From a virus (taxonomy: Duplodnaviria > Caudoviricetes), in the IMG/VR virus record IMGVR_UViG_2933088407_000001, positions 24,120 to 88,119 of that record: DNA of 64,000 bases; one strand, written 5' to 3'. Positions within the stretch are counted from its first letter, which is position 1. Every line of letters begins with the position of its first letter. The position numbers and the translations under genes are program-made. Under the pieces are notes generated by a model. That model did no database searches. It was not told the origin of the DNA and saw nothing but the letters and a program-made list of their open reading frames with translations. Of the stretch, positions 46,049 to 64,000 are shown one piece after another.

Positions 46049-46314
46049 GGGTGTCGCTGGCGCCTGCGCTGCGGTGCAGGCGCCAGCGGGCGATGGGCAG
46101 GTACAGACCTGGTGGTCAGTTGCGGCGCGTGCATCAAGCTTTTCGTGCATCTCGCCCCCTCTGGCTCCGGTCCGTTCGGCCCGTGAACCAGCCTGCTGCG
46201 GGTCGCGTCTGGGCAAGATTCGCTGGTGATGCACTGGTGATTCACTGCCGGTGCATCAGCGGGCATAACCTGCACAAGAAGCCGTCTACGAGGCGTGGGA
46301 GAGGGGTTTGACGG

Positions 46315-47478
46315 ATGGTCACGGTCGAGCAGTGGACGGGCCGTGAGGCCGTGCTGCTCCAGTCCGTGATGCGGCTGTCGAATCGTGACTTCGCCCGCGT
46401 GCTGGGTGTCTCGTTCGGCACGGTCATGAAGTGGCGGCGGCAGGGCGCCGAGCTGGTGCCGCTGCCGGCCACGCAGCAGATCCTCGACTCCGCGCTCCGC
46501 GATCGGTGCACCGACGAGGAGCGGGAGGCGTTCTACGCCCGCCTCTCCCCGACCGTCCCGGCTCAGAGCGCGGCTCCCGCCGCCTCAGGGGCCCTTCCGG
46601 CGCCGTGCGTGGTTGTCAGTCACAAGTTCCTGCCCGTATACGTCGGCGAACGCCTGGCGGCCGCGTTCGGGGCTGGCCAGGACCAGCGGCCGGGGCCGGG
46701 CGGCCTCGAGCAGCGGACGCTGAGCGTCGAGCACCGCACGGCCGAGGCCGCGACGGTGCACTCCTACGCATGCGGAGTTGCCGTCGTGCACCTCGAGGAG
46801 CACCACCGCCTCGAGACGCTGACCGACCTCGCGGTGTGGCGGTACCGGTCGTACCTCACCGACCGGGCCTGGGCCGGCCGCCAACTCGCAACGCTCCTGC
46901 CCGGCCACGGCCCTGGCGCCTGCGAGCCGCACTACGTCCTGTCCGCCTATGAACTGCGCGACCACGCCTGGGACGACACCGGCCGCGAGACAGCGCTCCA
47001 GCTGCTCACCACCCCGTCCGTCCTCGTCAACCGCGAAGACCCCGACAACGTCGTCCCACTCGCCTCCGGCACCGAGGCGGAGAGGTTCACCGCGGGCTGG
47101 CAGCACCCCGAAGCCATCCCCTTCAGCGGCGGCGCCTCCAGCTCCCTCGGCTTCGCCGGCTGGTCCGGCGTCGCCTACCACCCCCACGCCGAGGAAAGCG
47201 CACTGACGATGGCCGACATCGTCGCCCTGGAGCTGGACGCCCAAGCTCTCTGGGCCCTGTCCTCCCACATCCTCGCCATGGTCGAAGCCGGACAGGATCC
47301 GGTCATGCCGGGGGACTTCGGGTGGCGCTACCTACGGGGCGCGTACTCTCGATTGACGGCGGCGAGACCAGTCGAAACCGCCCAGCACCGCGCCATGCGC
47401 GAGGCGATCCTGGCAACGTCGGAGCTGCCCTACCGGCTTCGATCAGCGCAGGACGCCTTGCGTGACAGCAGCCCCTGA
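46315..47478 (+). CDS. XRE-type HTH protein with large uncharacterised C-terminal domain
   Basis: WTGREAVLLQ..RLSNRDFARVLGVSFGTVMKW HTH. Confidence 0.75.
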   Translation: MVTVEQWTGREAVLLQSVMRLSNRDFARVLGVSFGTVMKWRRQGAELVPLPATQQILDSALRDRCTDEEREAFYARLSPTVPAQSAAPAASGALPAPCVVVSHKFLPVYVGERLAAAFGAGQDQRPGPGGLEQRTLSVEHRTAEAATVHSYACGVAVVHLEEHHRLETLTDLAVWRYRSYLTDRAWAGRQLATLLPGHGPGACEPHYVLSAYELRDHAWDDTGRETALQLLTTPSVLVNREDPDNVVPLASGTEAERFTAGWQHPEAIPFSGGASSSLGFAGWSGVAYHPHAEESALTMADIVALELDAQALWALSSHILAMVEAGQDPVMPGDFGWRYLRGAYSRLTAARPVETAQHRAMREAILATSELPYRLRSAQDALRDSSP

Positions 47479-47501
47479 CCGGACGACGGAAGGCGAAGCG
47501 A

Positions 47502-48065
47502 GTGGATCCCCGAACGACGGCGCTCATCGTGGTGGACGTCCAAAACGGCTTCGTCAACGACCGCAGCCAGCACGCCGTCCCTGTCGTACAGCGCCTCGTC
47601 GACTCCTGGACCAAGGCCGGCGCCCCCTTGGTCTTCGCCCGCTTCTACAACGCCCCAGACTCGCCGTACGAGCGATTCACCGGCTGGACCCGGCTCCGCA
47701 GCGCCGAGGAGCAGAGCATCGTCGCCGACCTCGCCCCGTACCTCCCGTCCGCGGCCGCGGTCATCGACAAGCCCACCTCCAGCGCCCTCACCGCCGACTG
47801 CCTCCAGCTCATCCAGCGGTCCGGCTGGACGGATCTGGTGATCTGCGGCATCGACACCGACTCCTGCGTCTACGACACCGCGGTCTCCGCCTACCACGCC
47901 GGCTACCGCCCTTGGCTCGTCACCGACGCCTGCGCCTCCACCGGCGGAAACGCCTACCACGAAGCCGCGCTGCTCCTCGCCGGCCGCAACCTCGGCCGGA
48001 AGCAGCTCGTCACCACCAATGAAGTGCTGTGCCGACTGACAGCCGCCACGGTGGAGGCGGCATGA
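47502..48065 (+). CDS. isochorismatase-family cysteine hydrolase
   Basis: ALIVVDVQNGF (D), IDKPTSSA (K), GIDTDSCVYDTA (C), LVTDACAS. Confidence 0.9.
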   Translation: MDPRTTALIVVDVQNGFVNDRSQHAVPVVQRLVDSWTKAGAPLVFARFYNAPDSPYERFTGWTRLRSAEEQSIVADLAPYLPSAAAVIDKPTSSALTADCLQLIQRSGWTDLVICGIDTDSCVYDTAVSAYHAGYRPWLVTDACASTGGNAYHEAALLLAGRNLGRKQLVTTNEVLCRLTAATVEAA

Positions 48066-49039
48066 ACGACCTCATCGTCATCGGCGCCGGCCCCGCCGGA
48101 TGCGCGGCCGCGGTAATGGCCGCCAGCCTCGGCCAGCACGTCACCGTGGTCGAAACCGACAAGGTCGGCGGCAAGCTCCACCAGATCAGCGCCCTGGAGA
48201 ACGTCCCCGGCGCCTGGGCCACCGGGCCGGCACTCGCGCAGGCCCTCGCCGCGGACCTCGCCCGGATCCAGCACTCCGGGCGCTGCACGCTGATCGAGGG
48301 CCGGGCGATCAGCGTCGCCGGGCATGACGACCGGGCCGAAGCTGTCCTCAAGGACGGGCAGGTGCTTGCCGCGGCCGCGGTCATCGTCGCCACAGGCGTT
48401 GCCGCCGTCACCCCCGCCACAGCCGACTGGATAGCTGCGCCCGACGGCCTGGACCTGCCGCCTCTGTGGCGTGCCCGGCCGGAGGAACTGCGGGGCCGCA
48501 CCTACGTCCTTGGCGGCGACCGTCCTCTCGGGACGTGGCTGCGGTCGCACCCTGGCGTCACTCGTCGGCTGCACGTCCTGTACCCGGCGGCTGATCACTA
48601 CAAGACCGACGAAGTGCGCGGCGACGACCGTGTCCGGCTGAGTCTCGCCGACCGGGTCACGGTGGCGCGGGAGCGGTACGGCGACGGCTACGAGGTGGTT
48701 GTCGAGGGACCGGAGGGGCGCCGCACGTTCGCCGTGGACACGTTGGTGAGCAACCTCGGGAGCCTTCCCGCAGCTCTCGACGGGCTCGTCCAAGATCCGG
48801 TTGGCTACTGCCCTCCGACCGAGCAACATCCGCGCATCTTGACCGCTGGTGACCTGAGGTCGGGTCGGTTTCAGCGGATCGTCACTGCTCAGGGGTCCGG
48901 CGCGGAAGCTGCTCTCGAGCGTTACTACGCAGCGAAGGCACCTGCGGCGAATCTGGCCTCGCGGGCAGTACGGGCCTCGGCGGTGGACGTGAGCCGCGAT
49001 CTGATCGCGATGGTCGAGGCCGGGAAGGCTGACGAGTAG
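48062..49039 (+). CDS. FAD-dependent oxidoreductase (thioredoxin reductase-like fold)
   Basis: DLIVIGAGPAG, IVATG, ILTAGD..IVTAQGSGAEAA. No CxxC. Confidence 0.85.
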   Translation: MNDLIVIGAGPAGCAAAVMAASLGQHVTVVETDKVGGKLHQISALENVPGAWATGPALAQALAADLARIQHSGRCTLIEGRAISVAGHDDRAEAVLKDGQVLAAAAVIVATGVAAVTPATADWIAAPDGLDLPPLWRARPEELRGRTYVLGGDRPLGTWLRSHPGVTRRLHVLYPAADHYKTDEVRGDDRVRLSLADRVTVARERYGDGYEVVVEGPEGRRTFAVDTLVSNLGSLPAALDGLVQDPVGYCPPTEQHPRILTAGDLRSGRFQRIVTAQGSGAEAALERYYAAKAPAANLASRAVRASAVDVSRDLIAMVEAGKADE

Positions 49040-55943: not shown

Positions 55944-56120
55944 CGCGCCTGGATTGTTCGCGTTGAGCCCCTGCCCGGCGGGTGGGGGCTTTCGTGTACC
56001 CACCCGTGCCTGCATTTCTGTGGCGATCACAACATAAACAAGGTAGAGTCGAGACAAGCAGCAACCGGGCAACACACCACGCCGGACCGCGCAACCATGA
56101 ACCCCTCCCAAGGAGCACCC

Positions 56121-56306
56121 ATGACCACCGCCCTCCAGCCCCTGCCCACCACCCCCGAACAGCTCATCGACCTCGTCATCAACCAGCCGGCAGGAACCGA
56201 CCTGCACGCGCAGCTCTCGGCCCAGGTCGGCGGCCGCCAGGCCAGGCGCATCCTCGCCCGCACCCACGGCCTGATCGCGGACCGCCTGTGGGCCGAAGCA
56301 GCCTGA
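56121..56306 (+). CDS. hypothetical protein
   Basis: AAGGAG RBS. Confidence 0.6.
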   Translation: MTTALQPLPTTPEQLIDLVINQPAGTDLHAQLSAQVGGRQARRILARTHGLIADRLWAEAA

Positions 56307-56412
56307 ACCCCTGTGCCCCGGACTCCCCCAGCCGGGGCACAGGTCTACCCAGACCCGGGCAACACCCGCGCGATACCGCGAAACCATGGACACCCGCCCC
56401 AAGGAGCCCCGA

Positions 56413-56802
56413 ATGCCGCTCGACATGACCGGCGACGCACGCCACAACCCCAGCGTCCACTACCGCCGCTACCTCGACCGCGACAACAAGGTCACCATCG
56501 TCTGCGTCCAGAACTTCGACTACTACGACTACGACGCCTCCCGCTTCGCTGACTACGCCAGCTTCGACACCGATCTCGAAGCCCAGTACGCACCCATCAG
56601 CCCCGACGACGCCCTCGACGCCGCACGCGAACTCCCCGGAGACCGCGTCGCGGCCGCCCAAGCAACGCGGCTCGCAAGCGCCATCCGCATCCACAACACC
56701 CTCGCCGACGGCAACCAGGCCCTCCTGCAGCACCTGGACGAGGTCATCGACGTGGAAGCCGGCCTGCGTCAAATCCTCGACCACGGCAAGGAGCAGCAGT
56801 GA
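56413..56802 (+). CDS. hypothetical protein
   Basis: AAGGAG RBS; coupled to the next gene. Confidence 0.65.
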   Translation: MPLDMTGDARHNPSVHYRRYLDRDNKVTIVCVQNFDYYDYDASRFADYASFDTDLEAQYAPISPDDALDAARELPGDRVAAAQATRLASAIRIHNTLADGNQALLQHLDEVIDVEAGLRQILDHGKEQQ

Positions 56803-57407
56803 CCGACGACCTGCGGCAGCGCATCGCCGATGCCTTCTATGACACCTACGGCCAGCAGAACCGCGACCGCTCCCGCGCCATCGCCGAAGCGTCCCTCGCC
56901 GCCGTCCAGCCCGAACTGGACGAGCTGCTGCACTACCGGAACGCCATCGTCTGGGAAACGTCCTGCCTGTCCTGCTCCCGCATCCTCGACAACGCACGGG
57001 CGCGGGAAGAGGAACTGGAGCGGAACATCGACTACCTCAAGCGGAACATCCGCAGGTCCCGGGACCAGGTAGATGGCTACGACCAGGATCTGGCAGCAGC
57101 TAAGGCCGCCATCGACCGGGCCCGCGCATTGCACCGTCCCGTCAAGCACCTTGGCCGAACGATCTGCGTTGACTGCTCCGCCTGGGACGGCAAGGGGTCA
57201 ACCGATAACTCGCCCGTCGACTACGACCAGTGCGCCACCATCCGCGCCCTCGACGGGCCAGCCGAGCAGCCCCTGTGTGCCGAATGCGGGCACCCGCAGG
57301 ACGAGCACGAAGACGCCGACGAGCCCGTATCCGTCGGCCTCTGCAAGACCTGCGACGCGAAGGGCAGCGACGACGCCTGGCACGACTACGAACCCGAGGA
57401 GGCCTGA
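56799..57407 (+). CDS. Cys-rich coiled-coil hypothetical protein
   Basis: CxxC motifs, coiled coil, ARALHRP..C..C...C.TIRALD. Confidence 0.65.
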   Translation: MTDDLRQRIADAFYDTYGQQNRDRSRAIAEASLAAVQPELDELLHYRNAIVWETSCLSCSRILDNARAREEELERNIDYLKRNIRRSRDQVDGYDQDLAAAKAAIDRARALHRPVKHLGRTICVDCSAWDGKGSTDNSPVDYDQCATIRALDGPAEQPLCAECGHPQDEHEDADEPVSVGLCKTCDAKGSDDAWHDYEPEEA

Positions 57408-58255
57408 TGGCCCGCCTGACGTCAGTGCCCGCACCCGCCAAGGCGGACAGGCCGAAGCGCAGCTACGCGGAGCGGATCAGCGCCATCTACGAGGACCCCC
57501 GCGTCGGCCACGAAGCCCGCGAACTGCTGCTCGCTGTGAGCTACGGCATCCAGCAGGCGGCGGAGAGCGGCGTCAACCCCCTGAAGACCGCCCGCCGAGT
57601 CCTGGGCCGCGACAGTGCCGGCCAGCTCCGCTACAGGCTGCTCGTGAAAGCCGACGCCCCCCGCTACGAACCACCGCGCGAAGCCGGTAACTGGGGCCCG
57701 TCCGGAGCGCCAACCTGTGAGGCGCCGCGCCTCCGCCCGTACAAGCCCCGGGGCTACATTCCGCACAACAAGCCCGACCCGACACTGCCCGAGCCCACAC
57801 CCATCCGGCAGCCCGTCATCCCGCCTGACATCGCGGCCTTCGTTGCCGCCTTTCAAGCGCAGGGCGGGGTAACCCACCGCCCGCCGCGGGATTGGCGCAC
57901 CGAGGACGGCGTATGCGGCGCCCAGTCTCACCACCGTGTTCTGGAGAAAGACCCGCGCACCGGCTGGACGATTCCGCACTGGTTCTGCAAGCGGCACAAG
58001 GGCCACGCTGACCGCGTCGCCGCACAGGTCCGTGAGCAGAACGAGCAGGCTCCCGAGCCGATCCCGAACCGTGGCGGACTGTTGGGCTGCTACTTCCAGG
58101 CGGACTGGGAGACGGTCTACCGGCACTATCTGCCGGGCTGGACGGTCCCGTCGTACGGACTGTGCGCAGACGACTGGCCGGCGCCTGAATCCGCGGTGAA
58201 GCGTGGGCGCCTTCGCGTGCTGGTCAGCAGTGTCGATACCGGCGGCGGCATGTAA
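57407..58255 (+). CDS. hypothetical protein
   Basis: TGATG coupling, GGAGG RBS, C..C..WFCKRH. Confidence 0.7.
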   Translation: MARLTSVPAPAKADRPKRSYAERISAIYEDPRVGHEARELLLAVSYGIQQAAESGVNPLKTARRVLGRDSAGQLRYRLLVKADAPRYEPPREAGNWGPSGAPTCEAPRLRPYKPRGYIPHNKPDPTLPEPTPIRQPVIPPDIAAFVAAFQAQGGVTHRPPRDWRTEDGVCGAQSHHRVLEKDPRTGWTIPHWFCKRHKGHADRVAAQVREQNEQAPEPIPNRGGLLGCYFQADWETVYRHYLPGWTVPSYGLCADDWPAPESAVKRGRLRVLVSSVDTGGGM

Positions 58256-58644
58256 CGCCCCAGTGTCATGTGCGGGGTTCGCGTGCAGGCCGGGCCCTGG
58301 TGGGTGTGAATCCCGTGATGGCCACCGCTCCACTCGAACGAGCGATGGAATCAGGCGAAGGCTGGGTGATACATCTAGTCAATAAGACAGGTGCACTTCA
58401 CGCCACACCCCTTACGTGCGCTTGGCGGGCCACCGGCAGGCTGCGAACTACCGACGACCCGCCCAAGCGGACAGACCACCGCCCGAGACTGCTGAACCCG
58501 GGCGGCTAGCGGCATACGCGACCGCCGCACCCCAAGCATGAATGAACAATCAACCAAATACATCTGGCGGGTTTTCACCGGAAAAACCGCCCCACAAACA
58601 CCCCTACCGCCCAACAGGCCTCACGTGATAACGGGAGAACACCC

Positions 58645-59517
58645 TTGGACGCCACGTCCCTCCAAACCCTGCTCGTCAAGCACCGCAGCCTCATCGACCC
58701 CGAAGTCCACGGCCTGTCCCGCCCCACCCGGCAAGGCCGCCGCGCACCAGGGCTCTCGCAGCAGCAGATGGACGGACTCCTCCACCGCACCGGCGGCACC
58801 TACGCCCGCCTCGAAGCCGGCCGCCACAAGAACCCGTCCATAGAACTCCTCCGCGACGTCGCCCTCATCCTCGTCATGTCCGAGCAGGAGTGGGTGGCTC
58901 TGTGCCGCTACGCGCGCGGCGAAGACCCGCCCTCAGCTCTCCGCCCCCGCTCAGGCAAGATCGTGCCCGGGATGTGGAAGGACGCCGTCGACGGCATCTC
59001 CCACATGGCGTACGTGACGGACTGCTCCTACAACCTGCTGTGCCACAACCAGGCGTTCGCCGGCCTGTTCCCCGAGACGGGCCCGCCGGGCAACATGATG
59101 CGGGGCATGCTCCTCGAGGACACGTTCCGCGGCACCCTCCCCGACCCCAGGCGCGGCAGCACCGCCCGGCCAGGCATCCTCACCGACTGGGCCACCGTCT
59201 GGGCCCCCTACGTCCTGCCCCAGCTCCTCGCCGCCCGCGCGCTGATGCCCGACGACCCGATCCTCAAGGCCATTGAGCACGACGTCCGCGACGACCCCCG
59301 CACCGGACCCATCTACGCATCCGGCACCGCCACCCAGGTCCACCCCGACGGCAACGAACGCCCCCTGCTGCACCCGACGCTGGGCCCGAGCTGGGTCAAC
59401 ATCTGCGCCGCGGGCCCGCTGTCGTCTCCGAACTCACGCCTCATGATCGTGATGGTGTACCCGGGCGAAGAGCAATCCCACGGCCGGCTCCCGCACCTTT
59501 ACGCCAAGGTGTCGTGA
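58645..59517 (+). CDS. MmyB-family XRE regulator with C-terminal PAS-like ligand-binding domain
   Basis: GRRAPGLSQQQM..YARLEAG HTH; AYVTDCSYNLLCHNQAFAGLF..NMMR..L..DW..W..LHPTLG MLTR_LBD pattern. TTG start after GGGAG. Confidence 0.88.
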   Translation: MDATSLQTLLVKHRSLIDPEVHGLSRPTRQGRRAPGLSQQQMDGLLHRTGGTYARLEAGRHKNPSIELLRDVALILVMSEQEWVALCRYARGEDPPSALRPRSGKIVPGMWKDAVDGISHMAYVTDCSYNLLCHNQAFAGLFPETGPPGNMMRGMLLEDTFRGTLPDPRRGSTARPGILTDWATVWAPYVLPQLLAARALMPDDPILKAIEHDVRDDPRTGPIYASGTATQVHPDGNERPLLHPTLGPSWVNICAAGPLSSPNSRLMIVMVYPGEEQSHGRLPHLYAKVS

Positions 59518-59603
59518 ACCTGCAACCTCGCCAAGGGCATTCCGTATCGTTTTCAACCGTAGGGTAAAACCCTCGCTAAACACATGATGCGGAGTGCCCC
59601 CTG

Positions 59604-60653
59604 ATGCCCACTCACGTCTCACGCCCCGCAATAGCCAAGGCCAAGCACCTGGCCACCGCTGATCAAACCTGCGACAACATCACCCTGCACCACGCGGATC
59701 ACCCCAAACTGGGCACCGCGCTGCGCCTGGTCCGCAACACGGGCGTCGAGACCCGCTACCTCCACCACCCCCTCGACTCCGAGCAGATCTCCGGCAGCCT
59801 CGGCATCGCCGACCGCAACCAGCAGGCATGGAACGACGCCGCCACCCTCGCCGAGAAGGCCGCGACACGGGCCCTCGAGAACGCCGGCCTCCGGCCACAC
59901 GACATCGACGCCATCGTCACCAGCAACACCACCAGCTGGGCGAGCCCAGGCCTCGACGTCCACCTCGTCGAAACCCTCCGCCTCCGCCCCGACGTCCGGC
60001 GTATCGCCCTCGCCACCGTCGGCTGTATCGGCGGCGCCCAGGCCCTCACCCGCGCCGCGGACCTCGTTGCGGCGCACCCGGGTAGCCGCGTCCTCGTCGT
60101 CGTGTCCGAGGCGCTGTCCACGATCTATCATCACGCGGACAGCGCGCTGGAGTCGATGATCTACAAGGCTCTGTTCGGCGACTCCGCCGGCGCCTGCGTC
60201 GTCTCCGCCGACCAGCTCACAACCGGTATGCGCATCGAAGACACCTGGGAATACCTCCTCCCCAACTCCCGCGACCGCTACTGGGGTCGCATCGACGAGC
60301 TGGGCATTCACTTCGACTCCACCCGCGCCGCCACCGAGGCACCAGGGGACGCTATGCCCGCCCTGGTGGAGTGGCTGAAGGGCCGCGACGCCACCAACCC
60401 GGACTGGACAGTCGTCCACGCCGGCGGGCCCGCCATCCTCACCGCGGCACAGCAAGGCCTCGACCTCACCGACACCCAGCTCGCCCACTCCCGGGCCAGC
60501 CTCCGCGAGGTCGGCAACCTCGGCGGTATCAGCGTCCTGGACGTCCTCGCCCGCACGTACGCCAGCCCACCCGCCAACCGCGACAAGGGCGTGATGCTGG
60601 CCTACGGGCCCGGGTTCACCACCGCCGCACTCACCGGCACCTGGACCGCCTGA
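59604..60653 (+). CDS. type III polyketide synthase (RppA/PhlD-like)
   Basis: Catalytic Cys-His-Asn in TVGCIGG, VHAGG, VGNLG; also NTGVETRY, ALFGD and AYGPGFT. Confidence 0.92.
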   Translation: MPTHVSRPAIAKAKHLATADQTCDNITLHHADHPKLGTALRLVRNTGVETRYLHHPLDSEQISGSLGIADRNQQAWNDAATLAEKAATRALENAGLRPHDIDAIVTSNTTSWASPGLDVHLVETLRLRPDVRRIALATVGCIGGAQALTRAADLVAAHPGSRVLVVVSEALSTIYHHADSALESMIYKALFGDSAGACVVSADQLTTGMRIEDTWEYLLPNSRDRYWGRIDELGIHFDSTRAATEAPGDAMPALVEWLKGRDATNPDWTVVHAGGPAILTAAQQGLDLTDTQLAHSRASLREVGNLGGISVLDVLARTYASPPANRDKGVMLAYGPGFTTAALTGTWTA

Positions 60654-60782
60654 CCGATCCGCCGGCGCCCTGTGCCACCCTTGGCACTGCCCGGCGGGAC
60701 CGCGCCGAAGGAAGCCGATGCGACCGCCGGGCCCCACCACGCACAGGGGCAATGCCCGGCCGAATCCGCGCCAGCATGAAGC

Positions 60783-61070
60783 ATGGCCCCTTCCCCCGAA
60801 CCACAGCCCGGCGACTGGCACGAAACCCTCGTCGACCTCCTCGCCATGGACCGCGGCATACCCGAGGACCGCGCCCGCCGTTTCCTCGCCCGGTACGCCG
60901 AAGAGGCGCGCGCCTCCGCCCCAATCCCCAGCGAGCAGCGCTCCGATGCGCTGGCCGCCATCGACCGGGTTCAGGCCGTCGCCCGGGATTGGGAGTTCAT
61001 GAGCGGCCGCACCGCAGCCCGCAACGAACTCCTCGCCGCACTCAACGGACCCAGCGGGGAGCAGCGGTGA
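60783..61070 (+). CDS. hypothetical protein
   Basis: Leaderless start behind GGGGCAATGCC-N15-CAGCAT. Confidence 0.6.
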   Translation: MAPSPEPQPGDWHETLVDLLAMDRGIPEDRARRFLARYAEEARASAPIPSEQRSDALAAIDRVQAVARDWEFMSGRTAARNELLAALNGPSGEQR

Positions 61071-61192
61071 GTGACCGTGCGTGCAGCCTCGTCGGCGCGC
61101 TCATCGGCGTCACGGCCGGCGCCGTCCTCACCCTGGCCGCGGCACGCGCCGCCGTCGACTGGGTTATCGCCCAAGCTGCAAAGGCCGACTGA
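61067..61192 (+). CDS. small membrane peptide
   Basis: GTGA coupling; single TM segment. Confidence 0.45.
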   Translation: MSDRACSLVGALIGVTAGAVLTLAAARAAVDWVIAQAAKAD

Positions 61193-61202
61193 GGCGGTTG
61201 GC

Positions 61203-61394
61203 TCAGCTATCGGTGTCAGGTTCCGGTCGACATGGAGGGTTCGCGTCGGGGCGTCGGACGTACCACTCCATGAATAAGCGCAGTTCGGCCGATCGGTCGC
61301 TGTCGACACTTGCTGCTGCTGCTCCGAAGTCCTTCCAGAGCTGGTCAGGGATCCGACGGATCCCACGAAGTTTCTCGCTGTGCACGTTGGCCAT
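61203..61394 (-). CDS. RHH (Arc/MetJ-like) repressor
   Basis: RGIRRIPDQLWKDFGAAA..DRSAELRLFMEWY. Confidence 0.7.
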   Translation of the reverse strand: MANVHSEKLRGIRRIPDQLWKDFGAAAASVDSDRSAELRLFMEWYVRRPDANPPCRPEPDTDS

Positions 61395-61410
61395 GGAATG
61401 AATCCTCGCA

Positions 61411-61471
61411 GGGTGGTTGACCACCCGTCAAGCGTGTGTCATTCTAAGCACATCAAGGTGGTTAACCACCT
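61411..61471. promoter_or_regulatory. two palindromic operators between divergent genes
   Basis: GGGTGGTTGACCACCC (61411-61426) and perfect AGGTGGTTAACCACCT (61456-61471). Confidence 0.7.
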
Positions 61472-61508
61472 CTGATCAGCAGAAGCACCACCAACCGGGG
61501 AGGGCCAC

Positions 61509-61850
61509 ATGACCGCCACCATCGAGACCGGCACCATCGTCCGATGCCCCAAGCGCGTCGACGGTCAGATCGTGGGCACCCGCAAGGCCGTCGTCCTCGG
61601 CCTGTTCAACCCCAACGACCCCAACAGCGGATACGGCGTCTGGTTCTACACCGCCGGCCCCGCCGACACCGGCACCCTCACCCTCGCCTTCGAGCGCGAG
61701 CTCACCCCCGTTGGAACGATCGAGGACATGTCCGAGCGCACCCTGCTCAACCTCGAGCGCGACGGCCGCAACTTCTCAGGCGCCCACGCCCTGCGCATGA
61801 AGGCCAGCACCCTCCGCCTCCGCAAGGCCAGCGCTCGTCGCGGCTACTGA
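61509..61850 (+). CDS. hypothetical protein (SH3-like beta N-terminus)
   Basis: GGGAGG RBS; followed by hairpin CGCCTGCCCC/GGGGCAGGCG. Confidence 0.7.
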   Translation: MTATIETGTIVRCPKRVDGQIVGTRKAVVLGLFNPNDPNSGYGVWFYTAGPADTGTLTLAFERELTPVGTIEDMSERTLLNLERDGRNFSGAHALRMKASTLRLRKASARRGY

Positions 61851-61914
61851 TCGCGCCCCGGCGCCTGCCCCCAGGGGCAGGCGTCTCTATCAGCCACTGG
61901 CATCAAGGAGCGGT

Positions 61915-63351
61915 ATGGGAGCCCTGAATGGAACCCCAGAACAGCACGGTCACGCGGGCTTCCCTCACCCCACGGACCGGCTGGCCGGGCGTCTCGTAGA
62001 CCACCTCGCGCGCCGCATAGGCCACCAAGCCGCAGTGTCCTGGGTCCACGCGGGAGCCGTGCTGTGGTGGACCAACTCGCACAATCTGTTTCCCGGCGCT
62101 ACACCAGCGTCAACCGCAGACGGTATACGCGAAGGCGTCAAACGCCTCGCGGAAGCACACCCATCTCTCAATGGGTTCGCCGACCCGCAACAAACCGCCC
62201 TATGGAACGCAGGCATCGAAGACACTGAGGCGCAAGCGATCCACGAACTGTGGGAAAAACACCCTCCAGCGGACCCTCCATGCAGGCCACATGGCTACCT
62301 ACTCGGCAACGCCTACCAGGCCCTGTCCGAGGAGTCCCGCAAGCACCGCGCACTGGCCCAAACCCCGCGCTACATCACCGACCTGCTCCTGGACCTGGCA
62401 TTCCACCCTGCCGCAGCCCGCTGGGGCATGGACAGCTTCCAGGCCATCGACCCTTCATGCGGAACAGGTCACATCCTGTACGAGATGCTGGCCGCTGCGC
62501 AGGCGTGGACGCCTGGCGGACGCCGAACCGAGCGTCTCATGCAGCCCGGCGAGCGGCTGGAGCGTGCCCTCCACGTGGTGCACGGGGTGGACCTGGACCC
62601 GTATGCGGTGCTGATAGCCAGGCTGCGGCTGGTCGCCGCGGCCACCCTGTGGCTGAGTGCGAATCGCGTTAACCATCCGACGCTGCCGGACCGTATGCCC
62701 GATGATTGGCCGGTCAACGTGACCGCAGCGGACACCCTTCTGGACCGGACCGAGCCCCTGCTGGAGCGCGGCCGATATCACGTCGTGGTGGGCAATCCGC
62801 CATACGTGACACCGAAGACCGCTGAGCAGCGAGATGCGGTGCGTGCCTCGTACCCACAGGTGTGCCATATGAAGTACGCCCTGTCGTTGCCGTTCCACCA
62901 GCTAATGACTGACCTCCTCGTCCCGGGCGGGTGGTGCGCACAGCTGACCGCAAACTCCTTCATGAAGCGGGAGTTCGGTCGGCGATTCGTTGAGGAGTAC
63001 CTGCCGCGACAGGACCTGCGCTGGGTGATCGACACGGCCGGCGCCTACATTCCCGGCCACGGAACCCCAACGGTGATCCTCGTCCACCGCAACCAAGCAC
63101 CGGTCGGCGACACCGTATCTGCGGTACTCGGTATCCGCGGCGAGCCGGCAAAGCCAGAGGACCCCTCACGCGGCGTGGTGTGGCAGAGCATCGCCAGCAA
63201 GGTACGGGAGAAGCTGGCGTTTCAGAGACTGGCGGCCGCCGCAGAGCGCGAGATAGGGCCAGAGCCAAAGTCCCCGCCAGTCATCGAGCCGAGCGTGAAG
63301 GTCGTGAAACAGCTGTCTCTGTTCGGCGAATCACTGGCAGACGCAGCCTGA
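61915..63351 (+). CDS. N6-adenine DNA methyltransferase, truncated BREX-2 PglX-like
   Basis: Motif I IDPSCGTGHIL, motif IV VVGNPPY, and PglX-type strings TANSFMKREFG, IDTAGAYIPGHGTPTVIL, RGEP..PEDP..G.VW. Only 478 aa. Confidence 0.85.
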   Translation: MGALNGTPEQHGHAGFPHPTDRLAGRLVDHLARRIGHQAAVSWVHAGAVLWWTNSHNLFPGATPASTADGIREGVKRLAEAHPSLNGFADPQQTALWNAGIEDTEAQAIHELWEKHPPADPPCRPHGYLLGNAYQALSEESRKHRALAQTPRYITDLLLDLAFHPAAARWGMDSFQAIDPSCGTGHILYEMLAAAQAWTPGGRRTERLMQPGERLERALHVVHGVDLDPYAVLIARLRLVAAATLWLSANRVNHPTLPDRMPDDWPVNVTAADTLLDRTEPLLERGRYHVVVGNPPYVTPKTAEQRDAVRASYPQVCHMKYALSLPFHQLMTDLLVPGGWCAQLTANSFMKREFGRRFVEEYLPRQDLRWVIDTAGAYIPGHGTPTVILVHRNQAPVGDTVSAVLGIRGEPAKPEDPSRGVVWQSIASKVREKLAFQRLAAAAEREIGPEPKSPPVIEPSVKVVKQLSLFGESLADAA

Positions 63352-63362
63352 TCGACAGACCT

Positions 63363-63435
63363 GCCCGGGTGGCGCAGCGGCAGACGCGACCGCCTTAAAA
63401 GCGGACCCCCGCGGGTTCGAATCCCGCCCCGGGCA
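63363..63435 (+). tRNA. tRNA-Leu(UAA)-like (reads UUA; bldA-type anticodon) with short variable loop
   Basis: Acceptor GCCCGGG/CCCGGGC with A73; Leu-like D arm GCG..GGCAGA.CGC; anticodon stem CCGC/GCGG with loop CT-TAA-AA; T arm GCGGG-TTCGAAT-CCCGC. Confidence 0.85.
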
Positions 63436-63462
63436 CCCACCACCCCGCCCCAGGAGGACACC

Positions 63463-64000
63463 TTGAGCCTCAACCCCATCACCGAAATCCTCCGACACGG
63501 CTACTCCCTCGACGACCTCGACCGCCTCACCCGCACCGCCCTAGTCATCGACCGCTGGCGCAACGACATCAACACCGCAGACCGATACGCCGCCATCCAC
63601 TTCGCCATCACCGAACAGATCCTCACCGCGGACCAGCCGCCCGCCAGCGGCGACCTGATCGCCTGCGGCAGGCAAGCAGCCAACCGCTACGTCCGCACCC
63701 AGATGCACCACCACGGCTACGACCAACGCGACGCAGCCGCCGGCCCCCGAGCACTGCCCGGATATCAGCGGTACTGGCAGCAATCCGGCCACACCCCCTG
63801 GGACGAACGCCTAGTGGAGTCCCTAACCCTCGCGCAGATCTGGCCGCACCTCACCCTCGCCCAGCAGCAAGCCGTCATGGCCCTCGCTCTCACCGGCGAC
63901 CACCAGGAAGCCGCCGACTCCCTAGGACTGACGCTGACCGCGTTCTCCGGGCGGCTCAAGAAGGCCCGCGGCCGGGTATTCGCGCTCTGGTACGAGCACG
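63463..64000 (+). CDS. sigma-70 region-4-like DNA-binding protein, partial
   Basis: Read manually: TTG after CAGGAGG, ...IWPHLTLAQQQAVMALALTGDHQEAADSLGLTLTAFSGRLKKARGRV (sigma-4 HTH pattern). Runs off the right edge. Confidence 0.65.
   Translation, partial: MSLNPITEILRHGYSLDDLDRLTRTALVIDRWRNDINTADRYAAIHFAITEQILTADQPPASGDLIACGRQAANRYVRTQMHHHGYDQRDAAAGPRALPGYQRYWQQSGHTPWDERLVESLTLAQIWPHLTLAQQQAVMALALTGDHQEAADSLGLTLTAFSGRLKKARGRVFALWYEH

Follow-up and report, generated by a model that had tools for sequence, protein, structure and literature searches.

A likely vioB/vioA-type alpha-pyrone cassette as optional cargo of a pZL12-like Streptomyces phage-plasmid

The window analysed here is a 64-kb stretch of viral DNA, corresponding to bases 24120–88119 of an 88,119-bp virus record (IMGVR_UViG_2933088407_000001). 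It carries two adjacent genes, one for a regulator and one for a polyketide synthase (PKS) of type III, which the original prediction had taken for a synthase–receptor pair that lets a phage-plasmid sense lysogen density, a polyketide analogue of arbitrium. Our analysis points to another reading. We consider it likely that the pair is an alpha-pyrone cassette of two genes, of the vioB/vioA type, which a pZL12-like Streptomyces phage-plasmid carries as optional cargo. The locus comprises the following features, numbered by window position:

58566–58591, no strand assigned: inverted repeat GGCGGGTTTTCACCGGAAAAACCGCC before the regulator gene, with the AT-rich core TTTTCACCGGAAAAA at 58572–58586; candidate operator (dyad 1)
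58645–59517, plus strand: gene for a VioB-like regulator of 290 amino acids (TTG start) with an XRE-type helix-turn-helix (HTH) and an MmyB-like (PAS-related) ligand domain
59549–59573, no strand assigned: putative PKS promoter region, recognised by conservation; -10-like TAGGGT at 59560–59565, flanked by GTTTTCAACC and the short palindrome AGGGTAAAACCCT
59604–60653, plus strand: gene for a VioA-like stand-alone type III PKS of 349 amino acids (ATG start) with the triad Cys141-His272-Asn305

The two genes are 86 nt apart, with GGGAG at 58633–58637, 8 nt before the TTG of the regulator gene, and GGAG at 59591–59594 ahead of the PKS start. Open reading frames (ORFs) within about 3 kb of the pair have either no Pfam match or a match to DUF6409 or an Eco57I-type methylase. 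The Pfam scan found no tailoring or transport genes over that distance, in agreement with the original prediction of a stand-alone two-gene unit.

Taken alone, both Pfam matches of the regulator are marginal (HTH_31, 27.8 bits with a cut-off of 27; MLTR_LBD, PF17765, 27.4 bits with a cut-off of 26.3). A phmmer search of the single sequence against the PDB returned nothing at E <= 1, and PHROGs held no family for either the regulator or the PKS. The assignment to the MmyB family is secured by its homologues and its predicted fold. PF17765 is matched by 28 of 28 aligned regulator homologues (best E 5e-21), and a profile search of these homologues against the PDB placed 3pxp first (E 8.1e-5). The AlphaFold model (mean predicted local distance difference test score, pLDDT, 88.8) gave 3pxp_A as its best Foldseek match in the PDB (E 9.8e-9, probability 1.00, template modelling score only 0.40), followed by PAS domains, at a sequence identity of about 17%. 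Like other members of the MmyB/MltR family (PF17765, 3pxp), the protein thus combines an XRE HTH with a PAS-like ligand domain, as had been predicted.

For this family, a fatty acid was found bound in the MltR crystal, the pocket fits amphipathic molecules, the dimer is suited to a palindrome, and members frequently adjoin antibiotic-related genes (PMC3406030).

The synthase is recognised by both Pfam domains well above their cut-offs of 27 bits (Chal_sti_synt_N, PF00195, 84.6 bits; Chal_sti_synt_C, PF02797, 46 bits). Residues C141, H272 and N305 are invariant across 16 PKS homologues and align with the triads of 1u0m and 3v7i, which agrees with the type III PKS with intact Cys-His-Asn that the original prediction described. 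Its "PhlD-like" label found no confirmation: it occurs only as a RefSeq name. Among NCBIfam models, 17 families matched but none at its cut-off, the best being DpgA with 100.1 of the required 425 bits; a PhlD model was not among the 17, and the library may hold none.

By homology, the two genes are divergent homologues of a characterised pair, vioB/vioA, so that the pair itself is not new. The plasmid that bears these genes in S. somaliensis SCSIO ZH66 is circular and measures about 85 kb (Huang et al. 2016, PMC4924298). VioA, of 350 amino acids, is 95% identical to pCQ3.110c, and VioB, an XRE regulator, is 95% identical to pCQ4.19c (PMC4924298). We therefore made all comparisons with VioA and VioB through these two proxies. 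The PKS aligns with pCQ3.110c over residues 1–349 at 49% identity (174/352, E 4e-116, 328 bits), and the regulator aligns with pCQ4.19c over its full length at 53% identity (150/284 columns), with a 16-residue insert in the window protein. As in vioB/vioA, an XRE/MmyB-type regulator stands directly before a PKS of about 350 residues, in the same order, and the two replicons are also alike: both are circular, and pCQ3 and pCQ4, the closest relatives of the vio plasmid, have terminases related to that of the window. The difference lies in the degree of identity, just 49% and 53% against the proxies, and in the placement of the window PKS in a separate, well-supported clade.

The function of vioA and vioB is known from genetics. 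Deletion of vioA abolishes violapyrone B, whereas without vioB its level is about eightfold higher; since the ORFs on either side can be dispensed with, the cluster consists of two genes (PMC4924298). VioB is thus genetically a negative regulator of the synthase, and production is low under laboratory conditions (PMC4924298). In this it differs from MmyB, which is described as an activator; the furan signals to which MmyB responds come from a separate pathway. The products are 3-methyl-4-hydroxy-6-alkyl-alpha-pyrones (PMC4924298, PMC5898002), and S. coelicolor M1146 given no gene of the pair but vioA produces 14 violapyrones (Hou et al. 2018, PMC5898002). VioA is severely impaired by I174A or Y229A and loses its activity altogether with S242A (PMC5898002). 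The corresponding residues of the window PKS are I174, Y226 and S239, and L190 and G228 (equivalent to G231) are kept too; this mapping assumes that pCQ3.110c and VioA, both of 350 residues, share their numbering.

The original prediction had also called the enzyme RppA-like, and a tetrahydroxynaphthalene synthase (THNS) making a pigment or melanin precursor would be the corresponding alternative. The best solved-structure match of the PKS is indeed naphthalene synthase 1u0m (180 bits, E 6e-52, full length), ahead of 3v7i; the annotation of the related protein pZL12.100 reads "similar to RppA", and the UniRef name of one homologue is tetrahydroxynaphthalene synthase. The VioA proxy nevertheless scores far higher, 328 against 180 bits, so that a THNS is not the closest relative with a known counterpart. 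The surroundings of the active site (SEALST, GNLGG) resemble 3v7i and not 1u0m, and neither a P450 or cupin gene nor any other partner gene was found within about 3 kb. The S. somaliensis strain moreover has a separate THNS-like enzyme, 72% identical to S. coelicolor THNS, whose deletion has no effect on violapyrones (PMC4924298). An RppA-type function is, in our view, extremely unlikely.

The virus record is rated complete, and its ends share a 95-nt overlap, which indicates a circular assembly. The GC content of the window is about 69%. The element encodes an integrase, an endolysin, a tail fibre, a tape-measure protein, a major head protein, a portal and a large terminase; outside the window it also carries genes for a ParA-like ATPase and for DciA-, ERF-, RusA-, NERD- and WhiB-domain proteins. 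The terminase is 56–82% identical to its counterparts on 34 Streptomyces or Kitasatospora plasmids of about 85–94 kb (one of 152 kb). These include pCQ3, pCQ4 and pSLE1, with identities of 70–82% for the terminases of pCQ3 and pCQ4. Because of this phage gene set, the circular record and the kinship of the terminase, we class the element as a complete 88-kb circular phage-plasmid of the pZL12-like Streptomyces type, for which plasmid maintenance and plaque formation are predicted. The phage-plasmid setting assumed by the original prediction is upheld.

The presence of such a PKS on elements of this kind has been noted before. Phage ZL12 (GQ919031) carries pZL12.99, a "transcriptional regulator", next to pZL12.100, a "type III polyketide synthase", and pZL12/ZL12 and pSLE1 are circular phage-plasmids of about 86–90 kb, the same kind of element as ours. 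The ZL12 enzyme differs in belonging to another phage-plasmid clade, at 50.6% identity to the window PKS (tblastn). A megablast search with window positions 56000–64000 gave no match in the phage collection, and ZL12 emerged only by protein search. Gomez-Escribano et al. (2015) remarked on the PKS of pSLE1 and pZL12 and found that the neighbouring genes form no cluster (PMC4487206), and Sharma et al. (2023) reported type III PKSs only in prophages detected on plasmids (PMC10023795).

To describe the distribution of the pair, one genome per prokaryotic species was scanned with an alignment of 16 homologues; this recovered 175 relatives. The best 80 loci, the window's own contig among them, were retained. 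In 74 of these 80 loci the PKS gene is immediately preceded by a regulator gene homologue on its own strand, with 83–381 nt between the two; the homologue is missing in five and lies 4.5 kb away in one. All 8 loci that were inspected on plasmid, phage and viral records share this arrangement, with two small ORFs between the genes in pCQ4.

Among species genomes, most copies of the pair are chromosomal. Further genes shared with this phage-plasmid occur within 10 kb in 8 of the best 80 loci (L012–14, L043, L052, L069, L076, L086), whereas the other 72 have none and show at least seven different gene orders. Whole-genome checks found a related terminase on the PKS contig in L052 and L076, on another contig only for L041, and nowhere for L053 and L083. 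In 10 representative families, the chromosomal neighbours were GNAT, MocA-type oxidoreductase, MFS, TetR, SDR, alpha-galactosidase and NYN genes, and no common biosynthetic cluster surrounds the chromosomal pairs. The original prediction had named a mostly chromosomal location within larger biosynthetic clusters as an outcome that would tell against it; the chromosomal location was found, but the larger clusters were not.

Among plasmids, tblastn found the PKS in 209 records, foremost in about 35 circular Streptomyces plasmids of 84–102 kb. It is carried by 26 of the 34 terminase-related phage-plasmids. None was found in the remaining eight, which were searched over their whole length, while two positive controls scored. 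Because eight of its 34 relatives manage without the PKS, the pair is accessory, optional cargo and not a core decision module.

We then placed the PKS in a quick maximum-likelihood tree of 91 sequences (LG+G4, midpoint-rooted, several long branches flagged), with support values from the Shimodaira–Hasegawa-like approximate likelihood-ratio test only. The window PKS falls among phage-plasmid sequences, in a clade of 10 (support 100) whose sister group consists of 15 chromosomal sequences (support 99). The enzymes of ZL12, pCQ3 and pCQ4 occupy another part of the tree, interleaved with chromosomal copies, and the phage-plasmid label requires at least four changes. According to this tree, the pair has exchanged one setting for the other, chromosome or phage-plasmid, no fewer than four times. 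Pairwise identities of regulator and PKS correlate strongly (Mantel r = 0.87, 0 of 999 permutations as high), which fits transfer as a unit, yet would also be expected from shared descent.

One branch of the tree departs from the two-gene arrangement. The window PKS is of the same subfamily as Cpz6, or presulficidin synthase, of the caprazamycin and liposidomycin clusters, and is 51% identical to P0110, the type III PKS of the liposidomycin producer SN-1061M. Regulator-less sequences group with P0110. In contrast to the window, P0110, L070, L036 and L037 have no MmyB-type regulator upstream. VioA and Cpz6 both make violapyrone B, which is the same compound as presulficidin A, but the Cpz6-type enzyme sits in a large nucleoside-antibiotic cluster, where the pyrone serves as a sulfate carrier (PMC4924298).

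These distributions bear directly on the signalling role first proposed, in which lysogens would release the pyrone as a diffusible signal, the MmyB-type protein would act as its receptor, and the pair would thereby adjust lysis, lysogeny or transfer to lysogen density. Two known systems follow a comparable logic, PpyS/PluR of Photorhabdus and arbitrium of Bacillus phages, in that a diffusible product and a cytoplasmic receptor stand side by side. Neither is homologous to the window's pair, which is mostly non-phage: PpyS does not belong to the type III PKSs, PluR is classed as a LuxR solo, and arbitrium works through a peptide. The proposal gains from the adjacency of a synthase and a ligand-binding regulator that are inherited as a unit, from the amphipathic pocket of the regulator's family, and from retention of the pair by 26 of 34 related phage-plasmids. 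Alpha-pyrones also signal elsewhere: photopyrones are alkyl-alpha-pyrones, violapyrones have been likened to them, and a signalling role for violapyrones was suggested by this analogy (PMC12113368). Low-level VioA expression is reported to switch on silent clusters in other strains (PMC12113368).

The evidence on the other side is broader. The pair is mostly chromosomal and is missing from 8 of 34 related phage-plasmids, and the PKS tree calls for at least four switches between chromosome and phage-plasmid. The pattern TTTT-N5-7-AAAA occurs only once in the element, at the pair's own promoter, so no wider regulon is visible; as the operator is a predicted one, this negative evidence is weak. 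A search of the element for transfer genes of the FtsK/SpoIIIE type found none. VioB is a repressor of the synthase, the available text reports no life-cycle phenotype, and the products of the homologous vioA/vioB are weakly antibacterial alkyl-pyrones (PMC4924298). We thus find control of lysis, lysogeny or transfer quite improbable, and an arbitrium-like reading is disfavoured as the primary role. Because the pair is mostly chromosomal, is lost from a quarter of the relatives, has been transferred repeatedly and has no further dyad in the element, we favour accessory cargo over a decision circuit.

A broader version, in which the pair on pZL12-type phage-plasmids is a virus-encoded alpha-pyrone signal/receptor circuit coupling the behaviour of the element or its host to carrier density, likewise appears improbable. 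If it were true, carrier density would steer induction, maintenance, host development or antibiotic output. The circuit would then be a small-molecule, polyketide counterpart of peptide-based phage communication, and the chromosomal copies would be domesticated or ancestral.

Our preferred reading, an optional pyrone cassette, can be extended to its upstream DNA. Both dyads lie where the original prediction had placed them. Dyad 1 is among only six such 26-nt inverted repeats in the window, and the TTTT-N5-7-AAAA form of its AT core is a single occurrence in the 88-kb genome. A T3+-N4-10-A3+ element falls within -92 to -43 of the regulator gene, at about -67 to -87 from its start, in 67 of the 83 related loci, while only 0.27% of random 50-nt windows contain one; these loci are related by descent, so that the count overstates their independence. 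The strict form occurs in 21 of the 83 loci (background 0.03%). The element is kept despite a protein identity of about 50% and differing neighbourhoods. The GC arms of dyad 1 are not conserved, and a clean TTTTC-N4-GAAAA palindrome is seen in the window's clade and in two chromosomal groups. A scan of 58200–60900 for consensus sigma-70 promoters returned no sites. Because the only terminator-like site in that interval lies elsewhere and on the other strand (58410–58389), dyad 1 is not a recognisable terminator. Taken together, we infer a promoter-overlapping operator, a candidate for autoregulation and/or part of the -35 region.

The second dyad gives a different picture. The palindrome AGGGT-AAA-ACCCT is one of 100 equally good repeats with 5-nt arms in the window. 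It is absent in the closest relative, L001 (85% PKS identity), and in other relatives, and the T/A dyad pattern occurs upstream of the PKS in only 1 of the 83 loci. Of the related dyads claimed before both genes, the first is therefore well conserved, while the second is not. What is conserved before the PKS is the -10-like element that dyad 2 overlaps: TAnnnT lies 25–65 nt ahead of the start in 72 of 83 loci (background 2.6%), and GTAnnTT is found in 52 of 83 (background 0.2%). Because of this conserved -10-like element, the PKS probably has its own promoter. We considered an operator shared by both promoters and rejected it as a conserved feature: the half-site-like words GTTTTCA and AAAACC occur before both genes of the window, but their spacings are 4 and 11 nt, and the closest relative does not retain them. 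Regulator and PKS are also separated by a GC-rich hairpin in the ZL12 group, and the intergenic region of ZL12 is 250 nt long.

A further structure is found in sister phage-plasmids of the window. In L002, L003, L010, L011 and L013 the last 35 nt or so before the PKS start can form a stem of 8–9 bp (AAGGCCTC ... GAGGCCTT) that encloses the ribosome-binding site GGGGGAGG. This may be a translational control element; the window has no such stem.

By analogy with VioA, the PKS would take a short or medium, often branched, fatty-acyl starter from the host's lipid metabolism and extend it with malonyl and methylmalonyl units to a 6-alkyl-4-hydroxy-alpha-pyrone. No second enzyme should be needed, as shown for VioA, to which the PKS is 49% identical by proxy. 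The window's clade is distinct, so the chain length or the extender may differ. The regulator, presumably a dimeric XRE-HTH protein with a lipid-type pocket, would keep the synthase low, as was shown genetically for VioB. To judge from conservation only, it probably binds the AT-rich dyad about 73 nt before its own start, and it probably senses an amphipathic ligand, either the pyrone itself or an acyl or fatty-acid precursor. The conserved -10-like element would provide the PKS with a promoter of its own as well. To the phage-plasmid, the cassette most likely amounts to an accessory trait expressed in the lysogen, outside the lysis–lysogeny circuitry; its product, a diffusible metabolite of antibacterial or signal-like action, would be of advantage to the carrier strain.

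Several observations weigh against this reading. The characterised pair is only about 50% identical, as measured by proxies; the window PKS sits in a clade apart from pCQ3, pCQ4 and ZL12, and its pyrone product is a prediction only. With naphthalene synthase 1u0m as the best solved match, a non-pyrone product is possible. The regulator's sole visible site is at its own promoter, while the PKS probably has a separate one, an arrangement that does not readily account for control of the synthase. In some relatives, finally, the T-run forms the -35 hexamer of a TTTAnn-N17-TAAATA/TAATTA promoter, and the element at dyad 1 may be a promoter instead of an operator.

A more specific form of beneficial cargo would be chemical defence, with the pyrone shielding the lysogen from competing bacteria or superinfecting phages. 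The cassette is stand-alone, mobile and often plasmid-borne, as such a trait might be. Violapyrones act against methicillin-resistant Staphylococcus aureus, with a best minimum inhibitory concentration of 25 ug/mL and an activity that rises with the lipophilicity of the alkyl chain (PMC4924298), and against influenza virus (PMC5898002). These activities are weak, however, the available violapyrone literature records no anti-phage test, and the regulator keeps production low in laboratory conditions (PMC4924298). We regard defence as rather unlikely.

The pyrone could also modulate host development, acting like germicidin on the carrier or its neighbours and linking the element to the sporulation cycle. 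The second-best solved match of the PKS is 3v7i, which we take to be germicidin synthase Gcs; germicidin is a Streptomyces alpha-pyrone and an autoregulatory inhibitor of germination. The element itself carries a WhiB-domain gene and a tRNA-Leu(UAA). In published trees VioA groups with Cpz6, DpyA and Gcs (PMC5898002), and the vio cluster is under developmental control by WblA, deletion of host wblA switching it on (PMC4924298). The likeness to germicidin is at the level of compound class only, however, and the accessible vio literature contains no germination or developmental effect of violapyrones. A role in germination or host development seems very unlikely.

Under the optional-cargo reading, part of what is described here is already known, namely the two-gene pyrone pathway and the published occurrence of the PKS on pZL12 and pSLE1. 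New are the optional status of the cargo, its mostly chromosomal spread, its repeated moves, the conserved dyad upstream of the regulator, and the finding that dyad 2 is not conserved. The best-studied vio copies sit on replicons that are both temperate phage and plasmid, a point on which the natural-product papers are silent: to them the replicon is just a plasmid, and "phage" is a word absent from the available text of either (PMC4924298, PMC5898002). Beyond one survey remark, we found no literature that links violapyrone to phages or type III polyketides to phage-plasmids. The self-contained cassette, with its conserved promoter architecture, shuttles repeatedly between chromosomes and phage-plasmids. 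It therefore lends itself to studying how a virus spreads an entire secondary-metabolite pathway through Streptomyces, and is a cheap system for asking what such a metabolite does for a phage-plasmid. The earlier interpretation of the locus was correct on its anatomy only.

Among the best 80 loci, the five without an upstream MmyB-type regulator are L036, L037, L070, L048 and L072. The first three form a well-supported branch with P0110, which appears as the Cpz6-like, cluster-embedded version of the enzyme. In another chromosomal group (L017, L020, L021, L025), a second regulator of the same family lies immediately 3′ of the PKS on the opposite strand.

Two features of the element touch on developmental control. 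A protein of 351 amino acids with a C-terminal WhiB domain is encoded outside the window (G000:C1:18184-19239, L005); a Wbl protein borne by the phage-plasmid might feed into the same control that host wblA exerts over the vio cluster. A tRNA-Leu(UAA) gene lies at window positions 63362–63439. Such a tRNA reads the rare Streptomyces TTA codon, as bldA does. TTA codons occur in only 3 of the 109 predicted ORFs of the element, the integrase gene (847–2040) among them. Control of the pair through this tRNA was dropped as an explanation, since neither the regulator gene nor the PKS gene contains a TTA codon.

Just 3′ of the pair, positions 61509–63351 hold a DUF6409 gene and a gene for a 478-residue protein with an Eco57I/MmeI-type N6-adenine methyltransferase domain. 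Pfam recognises no nuclease part in it, and it may be an orphan methylase that evades host restriction. Farther away, at 46312–49039 on the plus strand, lie genes for a 388-residue protein of unknown function, an isochorismatase-family hydrolase and an FAD/NAD-dependent oxidoreductase. This trio was considered as a supplier of tailoring enzymes and dropped, since all three stand near the pair in only 1 of the 80 genome loci: in L047, homologues with 45–57% identity lie 4 kb downstream of a chromosomal regulator–PKS pair. L071 has only one homologue, weakly similar and on the opposite strand.

In several related phage-plasmids (NC_013449.1, NZ_CP032230.1, NZ_CP108353.1, NZ_CP134214.1 and NZ_CP109524.1 are examples), the large-terminase match is broken in two, and a homing-endonuclease gene of the HNH or LAGLIDADG kind is annotated beneath it, which points to insertions of intron or intein type. 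In the window itself the terminase gene is uninterrupted.

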